A stretch of 64,000 bases of DNA from a virus (IMGVR_UViG_3300020576_006967:96001-160000); one strand, 5' to 3'. Shown: positions 29,823 to 55,869, numbered from the stretch's first letter. Notes: generated by a model from the letters alone, not told the origin. A program made the numbers and translations.

Positions 29823-30737
29823 ATGGAAGAAAAAACTAAGTATTTTATTGGCAAAGCAAAAAAAACACATGGAAACAAATATGATTACTCTTTAGTTGAA
29901 TATAAAAGTAGTCGAGAAAAAGTTAAAATAATTTGCAAAAATCACGGAGAATTTGAGCAACAAGCTAATTCTCATTTGCAAGGAAAAAAATGTATGCAAT
30001 GTTCAATAGAAGAAAGATCTTTGAAAAGAAAAAACACAAAAAAAGAATTTATAAACAAAGCGATTGAAATACATGGGAAAATTTTCGATTATTCAAAGGT
30101 TGACTATGTAAACAATAAAACTAAAATTAAAATAATTTGTAAAAATCACGGAGAGTTTGAACAAAGACCAGATTGCCACTTATTTTTAAAACACGGATGT
30201 CCAAAGTGCGGCGGCACTTCAAAAGTTAGCTTAGAAGAGTTTAAGAAAAGAGCAAATGATAGACACGATGGTTTTTTTAATTATTCAGCAGTAACATTTA
30301 ATAATATTACTGATAAAGTTGAAATAAATTGTCCAAAACATGGCCCATTTATACAAGGTGTTAAAGCTCATTTAGATGGAAATGCTTGCCCTAATTGTAA
30401 GACTTCAAAATTAGAAAACAAAATTTTAAAAGAAATAAAAGGAATAACAAATGAAATTAGAATTAAACAATTTTACAAGAGCGCATGGTTAGAAAGACAA
30501 CATATTGATATTTTTTTGTTAGATTTTAATATAGCAATAGAGTGTCACGGAATACAACACTATGAGGTAATTGAAAAATTTGGAGGTGAACCCGCATTCA
30601 AAAAAAGAATTGAGTTGGATTCTAAAAAAAGAAAACTGTGTGCAGAAAACAATATTGAACTTTATGAAATTCCGTATTTTTATAACAAAAGTGAATTGAA
30701 TGAAGTTTTACAAAAAATAAAAAACAAAATAGCATAA
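29823..30737 (+). CDS. free-standing homing endonuclease (DUF723-like zinc repeats plus PD-(D/E)xK domain)
   Basis: Three HG.KYDYS.V.Y...K.KIIC..HGEF.Q....H...CP.C repeats; C-terminal DIFL..NIAIECHGIQHY...D..K. Confidence 0.85.
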   Translation: MEEKTKYFIGKAKKTHGNKYDYSLVEYKSSREKVKIICKNHGEFEQQANSHLQGKKCMQCSIEERSLKRKNTKKEFINKAIEIHGKIFDYSKVDYVNNKTKIKIICKNHGEFEQRPDCHLFLKHGCPKCGGTSKVSLEEFKKRANDRHDGFFNYSAVTFNNITDKVEINCPKHGPFIQGVKAHLDGNACPNCKTSKLENKILKEIKGITNEIRIKQFYKSAWLERQHIDIFLLDFNIAIECHGIQHYEVIEKFGGEPAFKKRIELDSKKRKLCAENNIELYEIPYFYNKSELNEVLQKIKNKIA

Positions 30738-47950: not shown

Positions 47951-48370
47951 ATGAAAAGTGAAATGCTAGATAATTTGCGCAAGCATCTTGATTCCGAAGA
48001 AGGAAAAAAACAGATGAAAGAGTGGTTTGAAAAAGAAGCCAGACTTGTCGCTATTCACAATTCTCAACTGGAAAGATTTAAAAATAAGTTTGGTCACAGA
48101 CTCTCTGAACTTATCGAAAAAATTAAAATTAAGTATCGCTCAGATAAATATTATACATCCTGGATAAAAAGAGGCATTGAACCGCCTGAAGATCTATATT
48201 TCTTTTTATTTGATTATGCTGAAAAATATGGCAGAGAGGCCACAGAAGAAGAGTTTAAGGATTATAGTAACATGTTCACTGGTGAGCTGTATTTTATTGA
48301 TGGTTTCTTTTTTAATAAAATGAATGGTCAGGGCACAGTGGTTCAAATAGAAAAAAAGCGTGAAATCTAA
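47951..48370 (+). CDS. hypothetical protein
   Basis: ORF. Confidence 0.7.
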   Translation: MKSEMLDNLRKHLDSEEGKKQMKEWFEKEARLVAIHNSQLERFKNKFGHRLSELIEKIKIKYRSDKYYTSWIKRGIEPPEDLYFFLFDYAEKYGREATEEEFKDYSNMFTGELYFIDGFFFNKMNGQGTVVQIEKKREI

Positions 48371-48941
48371 AGAAGAAATAGATATTGAAAAGGGTAGACT
48401 TAGGAAACTTAAAGAAGTTCTTCCTGAGTTTTCTTTATTTGGAGATTCCAATCATTTAACTATTGATGCCCAGATTGATGTTTTGGATGGTATTATTTCC
48501 GACGAAGACGAAGCCTGGGAAAGAGAAGATGATCTTGGAGAGGGCGTTATGGATGTCATAGATGCCATTAATTGGCTCAGTGGTAATTACGATGGTTCCT
48601 TAGTAAACGACCATGATTTGGTGCCTAAGAAGCCAAAAAAAGACCCATTAGAGGTGCTTAGAACAAGATGGAGAAGGTGGATTGGACAAAAATGTCGTAT
48701 TGATAAAAATGGCTGGGTGGATTTATTTCATTCCGATTGGGCAAGTTGGCCAAACAACGTAAAGAAAAGAAATAATTTACCTTATAAACATTTAAATTGG
48801 GCAACATCTGGGGCTGCTGAACTTTACGCTCACTTTTTGGAATCTATAAATGTGGCAAGCATTGATGAATTAAGAACGCTTGATAATATTTATGTTGAAA
48901 ACAATTTTGAAAAAATTGAAAACAGGAAAAAAAGAAAATAA
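48360..48941 (+). CDS. hypothetical protein
   Basis: GTG-start ORF, 193 aa. Confidence 0.65.
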   Translation: MKSKEEIDIEKGRLRKLKEVLPEFSLFGDSNHLTIDAQIDVLDGIISDEDEAWEREDDLGEGVMDVIDAINWLSGNYDGSLVNDHDLVPKKPKKDPLEVLRTRWRRWIGQKCRIDKNGWVDLFHSDWASWPNNVKKRNNLPYKHLNWATSGAAELYAHFLESINVASIDELRTLDNIYVENNFEKIENRKKRK

Positions 48942-49123
48942 TGGACTGGAATTTATTTGTATTTAAAAAAGGTTTTAAGCATTATTTGGTTCCTGCCGAA
49001 TCTGAAGAGAACGCCTGGGAGCTTTTACAAAAGAAGTTGAGTTGGAAAATGGAAGTTGTTAAAAAAACGTGTGAGCTAGTTGAAATTATGAATTGCAATA
49101 GTGAAATTTTATCTTTAAAATAA
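48941..49123 (+). CDS. hypothetical protein
   Basis: TAATG-coupled ORF. Confidence 0.6.
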   Translation: MDWNLFVFKKGFKHYLVPAESEENAWELLQKKLSWKMEVVKKTCELVEIMNCNSEILSLK

Positions 49124-49260
49124 CCAATTAAAATGACAGACAAACAAATAGTATACACAGTTTTAATTGGCACTGCAACAATGTTTATTTCAGTGTGTGT
49201 TTTTTTAATATTTTTCATAAGGAAACATAACAAAAAAATTAAAGAAAAAAACCTCTCTAA

Positions 49261-49500
49261 ATGATTAAGGTTCCAAGAAAAAAGAAAAAACAAATTCCAG
49301 AAGGAGTATATTGTTATACGATGACTTCTGGTTTTAAAGAACTTGGTGGTGGTGAATATGGCTATACAATTAAGTCTTGCCCTTTTTACAAACATGTTGA
49401 AGGTATTGAGGGCCATTGTAAACTTTTAAATTGTGAAACAGAAGACCAGTTAAAAGATTGTGGAATAAAAGATAAAATAAAATTTAATGAGACAATTTAA
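49261..49500 (+). CDS. Cys-containing small protein
   Basis: IPEGVYCY...CPFY...C...DQLKDCG. Confidence 0.65.
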   Translation: MIKVPRKKKKQIPEGVYCYTMTSGFKELGGGEYGYTIKSCPFYKHVEGIEGHCKLLNCETEDQLKDCGIKDKIKFNETI

Positions 49501-49885
49501 ACCAGTGTACGGACCAAAGGTGGATCTTGATGACCCTGAAACTTACGATTATCTTCCTAAAACAGAGAAAGAGTTAGATGCACTTATGTTTAGAGAAATT
49601 GGATATGCACTTGTGTATATGGATTATTTTAAAGATAGAAGAAAGTTTTTTCCAAAAAGAAAAAATAAATCTGACATGGTAAGATTTTGCGATATCTTCA
49701 CAGATAAAAAATACGCAAAAAATACGACTCTCATAGATGTAAACAACGCAGCTTATGACCAAAGACAAAGAGTACAAAAATTGATTCAAAGTTTTGCGGA
49801 CAATAGAAGAAACAACCACGGCAACGTTCTATGGTATCAGGAACAAATCTTTTTATTTCAAGATGAAATAGAAAATATGTGTTAA
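49487..49885 (+). CDS. hypothetical protein
   Basis: ORF. Confidence 0.65.
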   Translation: MRQFKPVYGPKVDLDDPETYDYLPKTEKELDALMFREIGYALVYMDYFKDRRKFFPKRKNKSDMVRFCDIFTDKKYAKNTTLIDVNNAAYDQRQRVQKLIQSFADNRRNNHGNVLWYQEQIFLFQDEIENMC

Positions 49886-49900
49886 TTAAAAAAACAAACC

Positions 49901-50518
49901 ATGATAGTAAGCAAAATTAAATTTCCAAAATTTACAGGCATTAAATGTATTATGATGCCTTTTATCCAGGGTGATAGCTCTTCACTTCCTGAAATCTATA
50001 AACCATACAAAAAAATTATAGATGAGAACTTTTTAGAGAAAGGTCAAATTGGTTTTTTAACCATTGATGAAGATTTTGTTGAGGGCGGTAAATCACAACG
50101 TGGCTATAACGATGCTGGTATAACCCGCAACGTTCACATTGAGGTTGGTAGAACAAAAATGGGAAATCGCTGGGGCAGTGGCGGCGGAAGCTCATGGGGT
50201 GGAAAAAGAAGCACTCGTTTAAAAGACAGCACAATGGTTTTGATCGCCAATAGCATTTCAGATACTTGTCGTGTATGGAATACAAAAGATAAATCTTATA
50301 CAAAAAACGGAGATCTAAGTAAGTACATTGACAAATATCCTGAAAACACAGGTATTACTATGAAAAAAGGAGAGCTGGCAAAAATAAGCATATTTACTCC
50401 ACACGAATGTGTGCCACAAAAAAAACCAGGACAAAGACAATTTTTTAGAATTGTTGGTAAAGGTGTTACTGGTCGTGAAAAATACTTCACAGTTAATCCA
50501 TTGGTGTCAATCAAATAA
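49901..50518 (+). CDS. possible 2OG-Fe(II) dioxygenase-like protein
   Basis: YLTIDE-like FLTIDE, VHIE (HxE), distal PHE, RQFFR. Confidence 0.5.
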   Translation: MIVSKIKFPKFTGIKCIMMPFIQGDSSSLPEIYKPYKKIIDENFLEKGQIGFLTIDEDFVEGGKSQRGYNDAGITRNVHIEVGRTKMGNRWGSGGGSSWGGKRSTRLKDSTMVLIANSISDTCRVWNTKDKSYTKNGDLSKYIDKYPENTGITMKKGELAKISIFTPHECVPQKKPGQRQFFRIVGKGVTGREKYFTVNPLVSIK

Positions 50519-50521
50519 GTT

Positions 50522-50707
50522 ATGAAGCTAAAAGATTATATCAAACAACTTAAAAAAATAAAACCAGAGCTACAAGATGTGGATGTTAAAGTTGTGGCGG
50601 AAAACGGTTTGCTGTTTGACCCTAAAGCGAAATTTGTTTTAAAAGATCCAATGGATCCTTTAAATATTAGCAAAAAAAATGTAGAAACGATTGTTATAAC
50701 TTACTAA
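50522..50707 (+). CDS. hypothetical protein
   Basis: ORF. Confidence 0.6.
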   Translation: MKLKDYIKQLKKIKPELQDVDVKVVAENGLLFDPKAKFVLKDPMDPLNISKKNVETIVITY

Positions 50708-50935
50708 AAAAAATATGATTCCAAGAAATTGCCAGGAAGTAATTGCTTCCATGATTGAAAAAGTTCCTGTTGACAAAGAAGATTTTATCAGAGATCTAAA
50801 TTGGAATTTAAAAGATGCCATATATAAAGCCCCAGAAGAAACATTGCAATGGCATAGAACTCAGCAAACTTTGATTGCACATATTCCAAGACCAAAACAA
50901 GAGTGGGAGTTCGAAGTTGTCAGCATTTTTACAAC

Positions 50936-51642
50936 GGTTGGGTGTATATGTAGTGGTGGATAAAGACCAGAAATGTTTGATTAACCACAAAACATCATAG
51001 AAAGCACAAATCTTGAAATCACATACAAAACCACCATTACATATACACCTTGTTATGTGTAGGTGTGGTTAATTAAGGTAGAGTGTTTAATCGGAGAACT
51101 GAACAAAAATTTTAAAAGAAAAAGAAGGGTGGGAAGTTTTAATTCTTAATATTTATATATAAAGAAAACAAATATATGAAAGATTTGAGAAAATTTATTA
51201 AAACCACTATACGAGAGTTTTTGAATGAGAATATTCAAAATTACGATATTGTATATAGAGGACAACCTGATGATGTAGATGATATTTCACCAAAAAAATC
51301 AATTTGGGTTACTTATGATTATGATTTTGCGAATGAATATGGTAATGTTAAAAAATATAAATTACCAAAAAATCTAAATATTTTAGATACTGATTATTAT
51401 AGTGAATGGGAAAGTTTGGTTGATGAATTTGATGAAGATGGTGATTATGATGAGTATAAATATGAACCAACTGATGAATTTATATCCTTTTTAAGTTCAA
51501 AAGGGTATGATGGATTTATGAATGGTGATAATATTTTAATATTTAATAAATTTCTATTGAAATAAAAGTGGGTGGGATTTTTCTTTTAAAATTTTCAACC
51601 GAAATGTTGATTAGAACAATTAACGGAACACTTACACATAAC
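50936..51642 (-). mobile_element. 707-bp integron-cassette-like element with attC-like hairpin
   Basis: AAC at both junctions; inverted repeats 50941-50959/51031-51049, 51052-51066/51628-51642 and 51106-51123/51578-51595. Confidence 0.7.
51176..51565 (+). CDS. ADP-ribosyltransferase-like protein (ART-PolyVal-like), cassette cargo
   Basis: VYRG, IWVT.D..FA.EYG, NILD, KGYDG..ILIF; leader LRKFIKTTIREFLNE. Confidence 0.6.
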   Translation: MKDLRKFIKTTIREFLNENIQNYDIVYRGQPDDVDDISPKKSIWVTYDYDFANEYGNVKKYKLPKNLNILDTDYYSEWESLVDEFDEDGDYDEYKYEPTDEFISFLSSKGYDGFMNGDNILIFNKFLLK

Positions 51643-51714
51643 TAGACCTGTAGACGAACTTAAAGCTATGTACCCTTAAAAAAATCAAATAACTTCCTAT
51701 TTATTTAGAAAGTT

Positions 51715-52068
51715 ATGGATATTTTTAAAGATATAAGTGGTGAAATTCAGTTATTTTTTACTGGGTTAAATTGGACATATATTTTCATTTTTATAATGGT
51801 TCTCTATGGAATCAAGTATAAGCCAGAATTCCACTGGTACAATTCTCTTTTGCACAAATTAGGTGCTTCAAAGTTTAAAGTGTGGATCGCTGGTATCGTT
51901 ATAGGTATCTTTTTTTGCATTTTTAGACACTCAGACGGTGTTTTACCTCTTAATAGCTTATATGTGTCCAGTTTGTTAAGAAGTTGGATTGTAGCCATCG
52001 TATTCAATTCTTTGGCAAGCTTAAAAATTCAGCAAATAGACAAATCTGAAGATCCAAAAAAAGATTAG
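51715..52068 (+). CDS. membrane protein (holin-like size, 3 TM)
   Basis: Three hydrophobic helices, charged C-terminus, TATTTAT upstream. Confidence 0.55.
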   Translation: MDIFKDISGEIQLFFTGLNWTYIFIFIMVLYGIKYKPEFHWYNSLLHKLGASKFKVWIAGIVIGIFFCIFRHSDGVLPLNSLYVSSLLRSWIVAIVFNSLASLKIQQIDKSEDPKKD

Positions 52069-52105
52069 GTTTTGGAATTTTTGAATTTAATGTTTATATT
52101 TTATA

Positions 52106-52492
52106 ATGTTGTTACCAACCGTTAAAATAATAAACTCAGAGGTCCGTCAAATTACAGAGTGGCTTCTTTTAAGTGAATTCTATTGTCTTGTTGAAAAATC
52201 CAGACTTCTATTACTTTCCTCCACAAATTTAGAAGAGCTTGAAGAAGCTAAAATGTCAGTTGATGACATGGCAAATTTTTTATTAAAGATTTTGCTTAAA
52301 AATTTAATTGAACCAGATGATTTGTCATCTTATGAAATACCAATAATTTACAGAAAAATACAGCCAGAGAACGGCTATAATGCTGGTTACTATTTAAACA
52401 TGTGTTCTCTATATTTACTTCATGCAAACTTGTTTAATTATATTGTGGATGGTAGATATAAAGAATTTAGAAAGAAAAATCAAGGTTGGTAA
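52106..52492 (+). CDS. hypothetical protein
   Basis: ORF. Confidence 0.55.
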   Translation: MLLPTVKIINSEVRQITEWLLLSEFYCLVEKSRLLLLSSTNLEELEEAKMSVDDMANFLLKILLKNLIEPDDLSSYEIPIIYRKIQPENGYNAGYYLNMCSLYLLHANLFNYIVDGRYKEFRKKNQGW

Positions 52493-52650
52493 GATTTTCT
52501 AATTTGATAAGCTTTAAACTCATCTAAAATAGTAAAACCAGGAGGTGGTTCTATTTGTGAAAAATGTTTCCAATAACCTTCTCTTTGTTCTAAGATGGTG
52601 AAGTGTATTTTTTGTTTTTCTAACCAGTCGTTTACATGTAAAACTTCCAT
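52480..52650 (-). CDS. small MEVLHVNDW-motif protein (56 aa)
   Basis: Translated by hand: MEVLHVNDWLEKQK... Confidence 0.6.
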   Translation of the reverse strand: MEVLHVNDWLEKQKIHFTILEQREGYWKHFSQIEPPPGFTILDEFKAYQIRKSYQP

Positions 52651-52868
52651 TATTTATTTTTTACTTTAAAAACCAATTTATCATCTTCTAACAAAAATCT
52701 GGGTGTATTAAACACAATTTCGTATGTGCCGCCTCCAGAATCAGCATGTCCAGCAATTACCCTGCTAAACCTTTCTGCTTTTCTGTCTTTTTCTTTTTCT
52801 TCCTGTTGTTTAATATACTTTTTAATTTTTTCTACTTCCATCCAGATATTAATATTTAGTACTTCCAT
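52650..52868 (-). CDS. small MEVLxI-motif protein
   Basis: MEVLNINIWMEV; TAATG coupling. Confidence 0.55.
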   Translation of the reverse strand: MEVLNINIWMEVEKIKKYIKQQEEKEKDRKAERFSRVIAGHADSGGGTYEIVFNTPRFLLEDDKLVFKVKNK

Positions 52869-52950
52869 ACTTTTTTTATTTAACAAATATAATAAAAAAA
52901 TTGTTTGTATAGGATTTTATTGCTAAATTTGTTTGACCAACAAGATTGTC

Positions 52951-53901
52951 ATGAAAAACCACATTGTAGAAAAAATAAACCCGCACTCCAAAAATGAACC
53001 ACCAACCTACACTGTATATGAAAATTTAGACAAAGATTTAAAGGCACAAATACAAAGTTTTGAATTTGATAACACCAAAGTTGTTATAGGACTTCCAAGA
53101 GAGGAATGGAATATTGTTGAGTGGGAAGAAGAAGAAGTAAAATGTCAGAGAGGCAGGAACATACACTATTATAAAAAAGAAGAAGTCGAGCAACACCTAC
53201 AGGAGGATTTTGAAAAAGCTCTCAACAAAAAATTTCCAGCTTATATGTATTTTAAAAAAGTATTTGGTGTTTTATCTTTTTATCAAGAACAAATACATAA
53301 CACAACCACCTATTATAGTTTAAACAAAATTGATTTAAACAAATTATTATATTTTAATTTAAACAATTCAGAAGAATCACATGTTGATACAACGAGTGTA
53401 CAACATTACAACAATATAACATGTTACAATTTAAGGGTTTACGAAAATGGTTTAGATTTGAATGTGAGTGGCCATGGTCAAAGCTTGAATTTATATTTTA
53501 ACAGAGAAGGCAACTTCGTAAATCGTGATTACAATACAAATTTATCCATTTATGAAAGGAAGGATATAGATCCCATTGAGCTGTATAAAAAGGCGTGCGA
53601 AACAATTTTAGGAACACAAGGACCGTTTCAATATTATAAAGGAAAATTTTTTACAGAAAATGTTTGTTATATAATTTCTAAAAATGAAGAAAGCTTTAAA
53701 AGCGGTATTACTTTAAACGGTTTCAAGTCTGAATATGGGCGTGATACTTTTAGAATTTGTGAAGGTAGAAAATACACAACAGTGAAAAGGCCAAAAAAAT
53801 TTGAAATGAAGACCACTCAAGATTTATTGGAGTTTTTTATTTCTGAAATTCCAAAAAAAATGTTACACGAATTTAACATTAAGATAAAAGAAAATGCTTG
53901 A
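52951..53901 (+). CDS. hypothetical protein
   Basis: 316-aa ORF after TAAATTTG promoter element. Confidence 0.75.
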   Translation: MKNHIVEKINPHSKNEPPTYTVYENLDKDLKAQIQSFEFDNTKVVIGLPREEWNIVEWEEEEVKCQRGRNIHYYKKEEVEQHLQEDFEKALNKKFPAYMYFKKVFGVLSFYQEQIHNTTTYYSLNKIDLNKLLYFNLNNSEESHVDTTSVQHYNNITCYNLRVYENGLDLNVSGHGQSLNLYFNREGNFVNRDYNTNLSIYERKDIDPIELYKKACETILGTQGPFQYYKGKFFTENVCYIISKNEESFKSGITLNGFKSEYGRDTFRICEGRKYTTVKRPKKFEMKTTQDLLEFFISEIPKKMLHEFNIKIKENA

Positions 53902-54109
53902 TAATTTCACAGAAAATGATTGGAACCACATGCATGATTGTATATTGGATGCCACCTGGAGTACAACGAAACTAAGCATGTCTCAAAAGGCAATGGAAAA
54001 TTTATTTGAATCTCTGCCAGAAGATTTGCAAGACGAAGCAATACATTGGGGCATGAATGATACTGTGTGGAGAGATAATTTTATTCAATGGTATAAAGAA
54101 AATTTTTAA
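53894..54109 (+). CDS. hypothetical protein
   Basis: LPEDLQ.EA..WGMNDTVWRD. Confidence 0.65.
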   Translation: MLDNFTENDWNHMHDCILDATWSTTKLSMSQKAMENLFESLPEDLQDEAIHWGMNDTVWRDNFIQWYKENF

Positions 54110-54111
54110 TT

Positions 54112-54315
54112 ATGGCAACAATACAATTAGAAATAAAAAGCTGTCAAGAATGTCCCCACTTTAAAACAGAAAATCAATATTCCACAGATGGCTGGGATAG
54201 AATGGAAGATTGGATATGTACAAAAACAGAGCCAGAAAAAAAGATACAAGGCGCTGTGGAGTGGCATGAAGAAAAACACATTAAAGTTCCAGAATGGTGT
54301 CCGATAAAAATATAA
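54112..54315 (+). CDS. small zinc-binding protein
   Basis: SCQECPHF...C...PEWCPI. Confidence 0.65.
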   Translation: MATIQLEIKSCQECPHFKTENQYSTDGWDRMEDWICTKTEPEKKIQGAVEWHEEKHIKVPEWCPIKI

Positions 54316-54424
54316 AACCATGTACTTGGTACTGGGTAGAGTTGGCCATGAAGATTGTGGCAAAGGATTTACGTGCACCATTGTGCGTTAGACAAGGATT
54401 GGTTAAACCTAAAAAAAATAAAAA

Positions 54425-54691
54425 ATGACAGCAATTGAGTTATACAGATTTCTTCACAACAACAGAATAGAATGGCATTATTCCGAAAATGGCAACGAAA
54501 AAGATGTTATCATATTTGTGGAATATTATAATGTTGAAAATTTTAGAAAGATATTGTCAGCTTCCATGTTTGATGATGAAGGTATTGAGTGTAGTATGAA
54601 AGATGGTTATTTTTGTTTTTGGATGAAATACATTTGTGAATATTACGGCATTGAATTAAGTGAGGTTTTTATTAAAGAAGAAGAACAATGA
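54425..54691 (+). CDS. hypothetical protein
   Basis: ATGA-coupled ORF. Confidence 0.65.
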   Translation: MTAIELYRFLHNNRIEWHYSENGNEKDVIIFVEYYNVENFRKILSASMFDDEGIECSMKDGYFCFWMKYICEYYGIELSEVFIKEEEQ

Positions 54692-55869
54692 AAAAAATAA
54701 TTGTATTAGGTGCAGGAATGGTTGGCAGCGCAATTGCTATTGATCTATCAAAAAAATATGAAGTCACGTTGTTTGACAAATCACTCGATCAAGTTGAAAG
54801 AGTGAAAGAAAAACACCCTCAAATAAATATAGGCACATGTGATGTTACAGATGAGCATCAATTGGTAAGCATGACAATAGACTGCGATTTGGTTGTATGT
54901 GCGGTTCCAGGATTTCTAGGCTTTCAAACAATAAAGTGGTTAATTGAGGGTGGAAAAAACATTGTTGACATTTCATTTTTTCCAGAAAACGCTCTAATGT
55001 TAAACGAACTAGCAGTGCGTAATGGCGTTACAGTTATTGTAGATTGCGGCGTAGCTCCTGGACTTGACAATATAATTATTGGTCACGTCAACAACAACAT
55101 GGAAGTAATCCAAAGCTTTGATTGTGTTGTTGGTGGTTTACCTAAAACTAAAAAATGGCCATTTAACTATAAAGCCCCTTTCTCTCCAGTAGATGTTATA
55201 GAGGAATATACAAGACCAGCAAGATATGTGGAAAACGGAGTTGTTGTTGTAAAAGAAGCTTTGTCAGATATTGAACATGTTGAATTTGATGGTGTGGGCA
55301 CCTTAGAATCTTTTAATTCTGACGGGCTCAGATCTCTCATTTATACAATGAGACATATACCAAATATGAAGGAAAAGACTTTGCGTTATCCTGGTCATGT
55401 TGAATACATAAAGGTTTTAAGAGATAGCGGATTCTTTTCAAAAGAACCTATTATTGTGACCTCTAAAATGATGGGCGAACACAAGTATTCACTTGATGAT
55501 GTATATGTTACTCCGTTAGATGTTACAAGTAAAATTCTTTTTAAAGAATGGAAGCTTAGAGAAACAGAAGAGGAGCTAACTGTGATGCGTGTAACCATTG
55601 TCGGTAAATTTAAAAAAGAAGATGAAAAATTTACAGAGGTGGTCTATAACCTTCACGACGAATTCAACAAAGAAACAAACACATCATCAATGGCAAGGAC
55701 CACTGGGTATACAGCTACAGCAGCTGTTGAATTAATTATTAATGGTTTTGCTAAAGGCATGTATCCTCCTGAGATAGCCGTGCATGCAGCACCTGAATTC
55801 TTCACATTGGTTTTAGATCATCTCGCAGATAGAGGAATAGTTTTAAATGTTACACAAAAAACAATATAA
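54688..55869 (+). CDS. saccharopine dehydrogenase / lysine 6-dehydrogenase family protein
   Basis: GAGMVG Rossmann motif, AVPGFLG, DCGVAPG, VGGLP, EEYTRPAR, EKTLRYPGH, SSMARTTG. Confidence 0.92.
   Translation: MKKIIVLGAGMVGSAIAIDLSKKYEVTLFDKSLDQVERVKEKHPQINIGTCDVTDEHQLVSMTIDCDLVVCAVPGFLGFQTIKWLIEGGKNIVDISFFPENALMLNELAVRNGVTVIVDCGVAPGLDNIIIGHVNNNMEVIQSFDCVVGGLPKTKKWPFNYKAPFSPVDVIEEYTRPARYVENGVVVVKEALSDIEHVEFDGVGTLESFNSDGLRSLIYTMRHIPNMKEKTLRYPGHVEYIKVLRDSGFFSKEPIIVTSKMMGEHKYSLDDVYVTPLDVTSKILFKEWKLRETEEELTVMRVTIVGKFKKEDEKFTEVVYNLHDEFNKETNTSSMARTTGYTATAAVELIINGFAKGMYPPEIAVHAAPEFFTLVLDHLADRGIVLNVTQKTI

Follow-up and report, generated by a model that had tools for sequence, protein, structure and literature searches.

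A precise 707-bp insertion in a conserved phage gene, probably a cassette of a phage-borne, integron-like system

How does a complete gene, preceded by a folding DNA site of its own, come to lie within another gene of a phage genome? The question is posed by a 707-bp element in a 64,000-nt stretch of viral DNA, IMGVR_UViG_3300020576_006967:96001-160000 (this whole stretch is the window, and coordinates refer to it unless another record is named), which belongs to a phage record of 188,933 bp with an estimated completeness of 74%. A preliminary description, made from the sequence of the window alone, had viewed the element as integron-cassette-like. Comparison with related sequences makes it nearly certain that the 707 bp are a precise insertion at an AAC into a conserved phage gene, and we regard it as probable that they represent a non-autonomous mobile gene cassette of a phage-borne, integron-like system. 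The features on which the argument depends are listed here; a slash within a sequence marks a junction or a cut, and labels such as L006 or L072 denote other DNA stretches used for comparison.

50715–50935, plus strand: 5' portion (73 codons and 2 nt) of the interrupted gene, here called the host gene, a phrog_31550 family member
50933–50935, plus strand: left AAC, the presumed 3-nt crossover window common to target and cassette (target CATTTTTACAAC/)
50936–51642, plus strand: inserted cassette, 707 bp, absent from the locus in L072; homology to the cassettes of L006 and L152 ends on the right at 51642 and on the left near 50933
50936–51051, plus strand: hairpin of the candidate recombination site, arms 50941–50959 and 51031–51049, 71-nt loop
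50936–50940 and 51050–51051, plus strand: hairpin spacers, GGTTG on the 5' side and TT on the 3' side
51052–51066, plus strand: R'-like inner core box, GTTATGTGTAGGTGT, complementary to the 3' end of the same cassette
51106–51123, plus strand: left arm of a perfect 18-nt inverted repeat that extends a long split palindrome around the cargo; 100% conserved in L006, L151 and L152
51176–51565, plus strand: cargo gene, 129 aa, comprising an 18-aa leader and a domain with an ADP-ribosyltransferase (ART)-like fold
51578–51595, plus strand: right arm of the perfect 18-nt inverted repeat
51628–51642, plus strand: outer core box ACACTTACACATAAC (R''-like), whose 3' end is the right-junction AAC (51640–51642)
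51643–51679, plus strand: 3' end of the host gene, stranded beyond the insert, with the codons for RPVDELKAMYP and the stop; the insertion point lies within the Thr codon

The host gene meets the insert at ACAAC/GGTTG, between 50935 and 50936 (context AGCATTTTTACAAC/GGTTGGGTGTATATG), and resumes after CATAAC/TAGAC, between 51642 and 51643 (context ACACTTACACATAAC/TAGACCTGTAGAC); these are the two AAC junctions, with 707 bp between them, that the preliminary description had delineated. In its present form the open reading frame (ORF, 50715–50963) encodes 82 aa and runs into the insert, where it takes on the tail VGCICSGG (...SIFTTVGCICSGG) before a stop codon. Joining 50715–50935 to 51643–51679 gives an ORF of 85 aa with the C-terminus SIFTTRPVDELKAMYP, the restored frame that had been foreseen for a deletion of the element. 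The phrog_31550 profile matches the present ORF (E 4.5e-29) at profile positions 5–76 of 87 only, and the 11 positions that this ORF lacks are exactly those that the stranded remnant would supply. Ten homologues of the family (two from IMG/VR and eight from metagenome contigs, 61–81% identity) are all uninterrupted, and after the residues SIFTT every one of them carries (R/K/Q)x(V/I)(D/E)(E/D)(L/I/V)(K/R), with C-termini such as RNIEDLRAVF, KTVDELKLIF and RSVDDIRSAV that correspond to RPVDELKAMYP of the window; a continuation of this RPVDELK-like kind had been proposed beforehand as a test of the insertion. Misassembly was considered and ruled out, since an assembly error could not exit and rejoin the same gene in frame.

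An orthologous empty site is, by sequence, kept in L072, a 76-kb contig that is syntenic with the window and not nearly identical to it. L072 carries the closest relative of the host gene (81% protein identity) and is collinear with positions 48158–54996; between the flanking blocks it has 57 nt against 761 nt in the window, and its empty site reads CATTTTTACAAC/CAGAAAC, so that a syntenic relative lacks exactly this insert, as would be expected of a precise presence/absence polymorphism at the AAC. Neither of the two outcomes named at the outset as refuting the insertion was thus seen. Target and cassette end have only these 3 nt, AAC, in common, and a target duplication is absent. An exact IMG/VR search with the 19-mer of the reconstructed empty site returned one match (L071), which is unrelated and arose by chance. 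The same comparison exposes two more blocks of the window that are absent from L072, at 48346–48944 and 52650–54112, one of them with a 322-aa ORF (52933–53901), as well as some 380 nt within positions 516–1257 of L072 that are extra relative to the window. All of these blocks are devoid of the family hairpin described below and thus appear to be ordinary small-gene indels.

Within the element, a repeat finder recovered the left-end hairpin of the preliminary description, with arms (50941–50959 and 51031–51049) complementary at 18 of 19 positions. The stretch 51049–51066 is complementary to 51628–51645 at 16 of 18 positions, a pairing that contains the 14/15 match between the element's two ends noted at the outset, and the perfect 18-bp inverted repeat said to flank the cargo gene is found at 51106–51123 and 51578–51595. 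A reconstructed circle junction, folded with DNA parameters and compared with shuffled sequences, reaches -49.1 kcal/mol on the sense strand (z = -7.4) against -43.3 kcal/mol on the opposite strand, and its fold is one near-continuous imperfect hairpin that extends as far as the 18-nt inverted repeat; the integrated left site alone folds at -16.9 kcal/mol. One component of the original picture needs refining. The direct repeat GGGTGGGA does occur, at 51127 and 51570, with just these two copies in the 189-kb record, but a role as target duplication or functional repeat was rejected because neither L006 nor L152 conserves the left copy; judged by these relatives, the repeat is probably incidental and not a conserved part of the unit.

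The element has many relatives. The exact 16-mer ACCTTGTTATGTGTAG from the hairpin foot, used as a probe, occurs in 62 IMG/VR stretches, about 45 of which have the full unit architecture, (Y)ATAAC/GGTTGGGT...hairpin...ACC-TT-GTTATGTGTAG+extension...ORF...extension'-TTACACATAAC/, with hairpins of 40–120 nt and several stem types and with unit lengths of 284–1282 nt. Carriers are about 45 IMG/VR phage contigs, some contigs of metagenome-assembled genomes (MAGs) and the cultured Polaribacter phage P12002L, and the units mostly form tandem head-to-tail arrays. In L006, an intergenic unit, the first of three head-to-tail, is 80–90% identical to the window cassette over both non-coding ends, its ORF being alike in the first 22 codons only, and its homology to the window stops at the same AAC on both sides. 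A copy that is 96.5% identical stands in a different context in L151, and one that is 88.5% identical lies inside an array in L152, where homology to the window stops exactly at 51642. The cassette is thus more conserved (96.5% in L151) than the surrounding genome, in which the closest host-gene relative has 81% protein identity, a pattern expected of a mobile unit.

The family also records how its units may have travelled. In about 35 related cassettes, and in the window, the box after the hairpin is complementary to the 3' end of its own unit, whereas its complementarity to the end of the preceding unit extends no further than the core; such self-complementary unit ends are, by sequence, the footprint of a circular intermediate. 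No convincing in-gene insertion was found among about 50 related cassettes, L103 being a weak candidate. A scan of 185,579 species genomes with the 16-mer yielded about 16 true family sites, all of them on MAG contigs with inconsistent taxonomic labels and probably binned phage DNA; isolate chromosomes in this set had no family site, and no host or chromosomal source was found.

The host-gene family itself occurs as cargo elsewhere. In L002 (2842–3311) and L003 (2843–3377) a phrog_31550 homologue has a family site 5' of it, its stop codon lies within a closing box, CCCTATAAC/, complementary to the GTTATAGGG that stands behind the upstream hairpin, and the next site follows directly 3'. The gene struck in the window would thus be part of the same cassette gene pool. 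In L153 (1808–2252) a gene 78% identical to the cargo gene, again with the TATATAAAAG box upstream, stands as an ordinary gene after an IF3-like gene and has no hairpin; this gene could be the source or the sink of the one in the cassette.

Covariation indicates that selection acts to maintain the structure of the site on one strand, the cargo-coding one. Across 87 aligned sites with common 5/2 spacers, AAC and GTT are invariant (87/87), stem positions 1–4 and 9–11 alternate between GC, AT, CG and TA with broken pairs almost absent, and stem position 13 is a conserved G.T in 77. RNAalifold, applied to 46 sites, gives 23 pairs, 18 of which show compensatory double changes, and pairs AACG with TGTT across the spacer. 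A covariance model built from 46 training rows, the window's own site among them, scores 89–95 bits on the strand with AAC at its 5' end and 25–37 bits on the opposite strand. In the window it locates the site at 50925–51062 (69.6 bits for a sequence that was itself a training row), and a scan of the whole 188,933-bp record, the search for further sites that had been proposed, found nothing beyond it; the element is likewise single-copy in the record. Among 139 unique sites the non-Watson-Crick stem pairs comprise 206 of G.T or T.G, 10 of A.C and 20 others. Since the wobbles are almost all G.T and not A.C, the gene-sense strand would be the strand that folds. Outside the window, an inverted repeat of about 150 nt (G000:C1:176247-176398) has 28–32 Watson-Crick pairs and the bounds GTAAC/.../GTTGG, and it gives no match to the site model.

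What enzyme might act on such sites? The window was initially described as free of an integrase, and indeed neither the window nor the rest of the 189-kb record has a tyrosine recombinase (PF00589) or a homologue of the recombinases that accompany the arrays elsewhere. In L010, twelve sites on one strand are followed on the same strand by a 79-aa ORF and then by a 268-aa tyrosine recombinase (PF00589 at 6e-36, PF13495 at 1e-9). Homologues of this recombinase, with 50–80% identity and sizes of 268–286 aa, occur in ten of the comparison stretches; one of these is the complete 362-kb genome G002, in which the recombinase gene is a few kb from the cassette of L027. At all ten visible loci every site lies upstream of the recombinase gene on the same strand; the cargo ORFs are on the folded strand, downstream of their own hairpins and pointing toward the recombinase gene. 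The last junction, TAAC/TA(n)(n)(A/T)TATAT, falls 45–70 nt before the recombinase start at 9–10 of ten related loci. This candidate attI-like site, present at array ends beside the recombinases of related loci, is absent from the window genome; the window target, TTTTTACAAC/TAGACC, matches the attI-like sites found in L010 and L007 (TAAC/TAGATTATAT) at AAC/TAGA but hardly anywhere else.

By sequence comparison the array-linked enzyme is Xer-like, and the system would be an integron analogue and not a classical integron. The recombinase is collinear with Pyrococcus abyssi XerA (4a8e, E 1.4e-37), and NCBIfam ranks XerA first, at 184–186 bits and under the cut-off of 220; the integron integrase model TIGR02249 gives these recombinases 151–158 bits, its cut-off being 265. 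Alignment with VchIntIA (2a3v) falls into two pieces, with query residues 180–210 facing IntI 181–259 and about 48 residues absent, and from this it follows that the IntI-specific insert (I2) is missing from the recombinases.

Two further observations concern recombinases of this kind. In L006/L067 (2946–3086), a 47-residue remnant of the recombinase N-terminus (55% identity) comes directly after the array end CACATAAC/GAGTATATATACACACC; as only this remnant follows, the array appears to have lost its recombinase. The Polaribacter phages Freya_1 to Freya_10 (MT732463–MT732472), ten near-identical isolates of 43,978–48,920 bp, possess an integrase 37% identical to the array-linked recombinase, which starts at record position 83 in Freya_1 and 4180 in Freya_10, and the Freya_1 record starts exactly at the AAC/ that comes after TTGTTGCTAAC in Freya_10. 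The variation upstream of the Freya integrase may be cassette-like; scanned with the site model, the Freya phages had no family sites.

A course of events consistent with these data would begin when two adjacent sites recombine at their AAC cores, which would excise the cassette as a circle. In the circle the 3' end, ...CACATAAC, would meet the 5' end, GGTTG-hairpin-TT-GTTATGTG, to close one long imperfect hairpin whose junction would read CACATAAC joined to GGTTGGGTG. An Xer-like recombinase would exchange one strand of the folded single strand at AA/C, as IntI does on the attC bottom strand; its normal partner would be the attI-like site TAAC/TAnnATATAT in front of the recombinase's own gene, and replication would complete the event. 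Here the partner would instead have been a look-alike secondary site, TTTTTACAAC/TAGA, in the gene of another phage, and the enzyme would have acted in trans, its source being a co-infecting phage, the host, or the quarter of this genome that was not sequenced. As the inserted block has a hairpin upstream and nothing downstream, the AAC that lies 5' of the hairpin would be where the exchange occurred, to within the 3-nt ambiguity. The outcome would be a host protein whose last 11 residues are replaced by 8 unrelated ones, and a phage that has gained an ART-fold gene preceded by an A/T-rich box of its own. Because the 189-kb record has one site and no recombinase, the element is best seen as a solo cassette that was mobilised in trans and came to rest at a secondary site. 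An Xer-like, single-strand mechanism is the account that the data support best, and we hold it to be fairly likely; the stray cassette would itself be direct evidence that such cassettes move between phages.

Several points weigh against this reading. Mobility is read from the comparison of sequences. The link to a recombinase is one of adjacency, in other phages only, and the unsequenced part of the roughly 74%-complete record could hold a recombinase. The array-linked enzymes are without the I2 insert, although a passage in PMC7790495 has it that IntI is thought to need this insert for folded single-strand substrates. The G.T bias on the mRNA-sense strand would fit an RNA-level role of the hairpins equally well. 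In L152 the R'-ORF-R'' module of the window stands behind a different, short hairpin, and many cassettes consist of a conserved frame around unrelated cargo bodies, so that homologous exchange within the conserved boxes, or a second crossover point, would also be at work; hairpin and cargo must, it seems, reassort by another route that a single crossover at AA/C leaves unexplained.

Could the enzyme have been the bacterial host's own? A genuine integron cassette might have been placed by a canonical host IntI at a GTT/AAC secondary site, the phage arrays being CALINs (clusters of attC sites lacking integrases) fed by host integrons. IntI needs little beyond GNT at secondary sites, and precise cassette insertions there are known (PMC10127599), as for the aadB cassette in RSF1010 (Recchia & Hall 1995, as cited in PMC10127599). 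CALINs were moreover found in 17 virulent phages, and IntI1 recombined five of six phage attC sites, including two of PH101 that end ATAACG...CTTGTTAT like the present family (Qi et al. 2023, PMC9892861). The sixth, P12002L_attC1, was not recombined, and it is the sole tested site that belongs to the family of the window, with the same ends, the same TCGTTTTAATG loop and a match to the covariance model; the failure is an independent hint that IntI is not the enzyme. Phage P12002L has 5–7 family sites, on the gene-sense strand; attC1, on the minus strand near position 30058, precedes a methyltransferase gene. Arrays that end at an Xer-like recombinase gene at 10/10 loci, the restriction of the roughly 16 genome-scan sites to MAG contigs, and cargo on the folded strand, opposite to classical cassettes, all speak against a host IntI, which we consider improbable. 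A comparably small chance attaches to the idea that the hairpins serve chiefly at the RNA or regulatory level, as terminators, processing sites or 5' leaders, that cassettes are shuffled by homologous or microhomology-mediated recombination between them, and that the insertion was illegitimate. A model for this exists in the PeSL mobile regulatory cassettes of T4-type phages, reportedly described by Arbiol et al. in 2010, in which small genes flanked by stem-loops are said to be shuffled and circles were proposed. Like PeSL, the present units are small accessory phage genes flanked by conserved stem-loops and shuffled between phages. A folded strand that is mRNA-sense and rich in G.U-type wobbles would suit an RNA element, and the common frames round different cargos and the hairpin swap between window and L152 do resemble homologous exchange. 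Unlike PeSL, which is said to be driven by homology, the window junction has 3 nt of identity, too short for homologous exchange, and a site-specific recombinase is linked to the arrays with consistent polarity; the break falls exactly at a unit boundary that is invariant in 87/87 aligned sites, and a unit end complementary to its own inner box is what a circular intermediate would leave behind.

Two explanations that dispense with a tyrosine recombinase fare worse. A passenger element of the IS200/IS605 type (HUH, single-strand), inserting 3' of a short motif without duplication, would account for the missing target duplication, the position 3' of (T)AAC, the subterminal hairpin and the strand-specific folding. 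However, no Y1 transposase (PF01797) was found in the record, the array neighbour is a tyrosine recombinase and not an HUH enzyme, each unit has a single hairpin rather than one at each end, and the cargo has no histidine and hence no HUH motif. Such an element was rejected, and we see very little room for it. An intron spliced from the mRNA, leaving the host gene functionally intact, would explain why removal is precise and in frame, why the 3' remnant is well preserved and why long-range pairing joins both junctions. Yet an Rfam search over 50000–52500, with E up to 10, returned noise only and no intron match, and neither the splice-site nucleotides nor the catalytic core of a group I or group II intron are seen: no junction within the 3-nt ambiguity offers the group I U at -1 together with a terminal G, or the group II GUGYG...AY, and domain V is absent. 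Nearly all family members are, furthermore, intergenic, arrayed and beside a recombinase. On junction nucleotides and family context the intron was rejected, and its likelihood is close to negligible.

The reading of the element as a cassette of a phage-borne, integron-like system thus has to be set against the integron itself. The integron-cassette-like interpretation offered initially is supported by the empty site, by unit boundaries that recur elsewhere, by the recombinase-linked arrays and by the covarying stems; a classical integron is not, given the Xer-like enzyme and the inverted cargo. As with integron cassettes, solo attC sites and CALINs, one ORF and one folded recombination site make up each promoter-independent unit. 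IntI acts on the folded attC bottom strand and cleaves between A and C of 5'-AAC-3', opposite G/TT (PMC10127599). The phage sites have the same AAC and GTT core, are compatible with a crossover at AA/C within it, and would close their hairpin in the circle, the cassette 5' end being complementary to its own R'' box; they form attC-type imperfect palindromes with strand bias, asymmetric spacers (GGTTG against TT) and loops of 40–120 nt. As in secondary-site insertions of integron cassettes, the target in the window is a minimal GTT/AAC outside an array and without duplication. An integron map drawn on the bottom strand would even run in the same order, CATAA/C-spacer-stem...stem-spacer-GTTATG...cargo...CATAA/C...attI-like...recombinase. 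Unlike integrons, in which promoterless cassettes have the ORF upstream of attC on the top strand, the phage units have their cargo ORFs sense on the folded strand, that is, inverted, with an upstream A/T box of their own and no Pc; and an IntI with the I2 helix is found neither in the record nor among the array-linked recombinases, which are Xer-like and, where VchIntIA has its I2 insert, about 48 residues shorter.

The sites themselves differ from attC in that their core boxes are YATAAC and GTTATR, not RYYYAAC and GTTRRRY, in that their conserved landmark is the G.T at stem position 13, and in that complementarity extends far into the cassette, as a split stem of about 130 bp in the window unit. 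Collinearity with P. abyssi XerA is shared with Xer/dif modules (XerC/D, archaeal XerA), which, unlike the long folded hairpins of the arrays, use a 28-bp duplex dif site, and the XerA score is below its cut-off. Qi et al. (2023, PMC9892861) treat the phage sites as integron attC and mention no phage recombinase or Xer-like enzyme, and neither an in-gene solo insertion nor its empty site is described there. Literature searches found no description of this phage cassette system; what is new here is the in-gene solo insertion with its empty site, and the placement of the crossover derived from that insertion.

The protein gained by the phage has 129 residues and 63 metagenomic homologues, among which VYRG, W44, EYKYxP, GF-N-NIL and several Glu are invariant; a Pfam search gave no match. 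Nearly all of the top 40 structural neighbours of its AlphaFold2 model (pLDDT 84) have ADP-ribosyltransferase folds, with Z up to 7.4, which is below the caution line of 8; they include the diphtheria toxin catalytic domain, MbcT, ParT, RES, PARPs and a domain of a cyanophage pre-ejectosome protein. Foldseek found nothing in the PDB at E < 0.001. We call the cargo ART-like in its predicted fold, and ADP-ribosyltransferase activity putative. Residues 1–18 (51176–51229) form a leader, MKDLRKFIKTTIREFLNE, with the consensus MKDL(K/R)xFI(K/A)TTIRE(F/Y)LNE, that heads at least 14 unrelated cargo proteins of the cassette subfamily; it is seen in the window and in L016, L017, L019, L022, L028, L032, L042, L050, L063, L064, L067 and L151, and in the window's genome on no protein besides the cargo. 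Its end, (L/I)xE, resembles the T4 capsid-targeting sequence, which the prohead protease cleaves after (L/I)xE; this is a lead and not a result. By analogy, the leader may mark packaged and injected proteins. A search of the record for the T4-type prohead protease (PF03420) gave no match, nor did the controls, and is uninformative.

Phage cassette arrays might be fossil repeats, or they might be a system of gene exchange that still works, and the window locus is of a kind that can tell these two readings apart. On the reading preferred here, it would settle the side of the cut, at the AAC 5' of the hairpin and on the gene-sense strand, as well as the pairing of hairpin with gene, since it is the upstream hairpin that travels, and it would establish that a minimal target suffices for a reaction in trans. 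If an Xer-like enzyme is confirmed, integron-type recombination would be possible without the IntI-specific domain, and the fast turnover of small accessory phage genes would have a defined mechanism. In the broadest form of the proposal, to which we give about an even chance, phages of Bacteroidota-type hosts run an integron-like exchange of their own, in which an Xer-like enzyme without I2 recombines folded single-stranded hairpins and cassettes can be thrown in trans into the genes of unrelated co-infecting phages. If true, this would amount to site-specific gene flow between virulent phages, and integron chemistry would either have originated twice or be seen here in an ancestral form.

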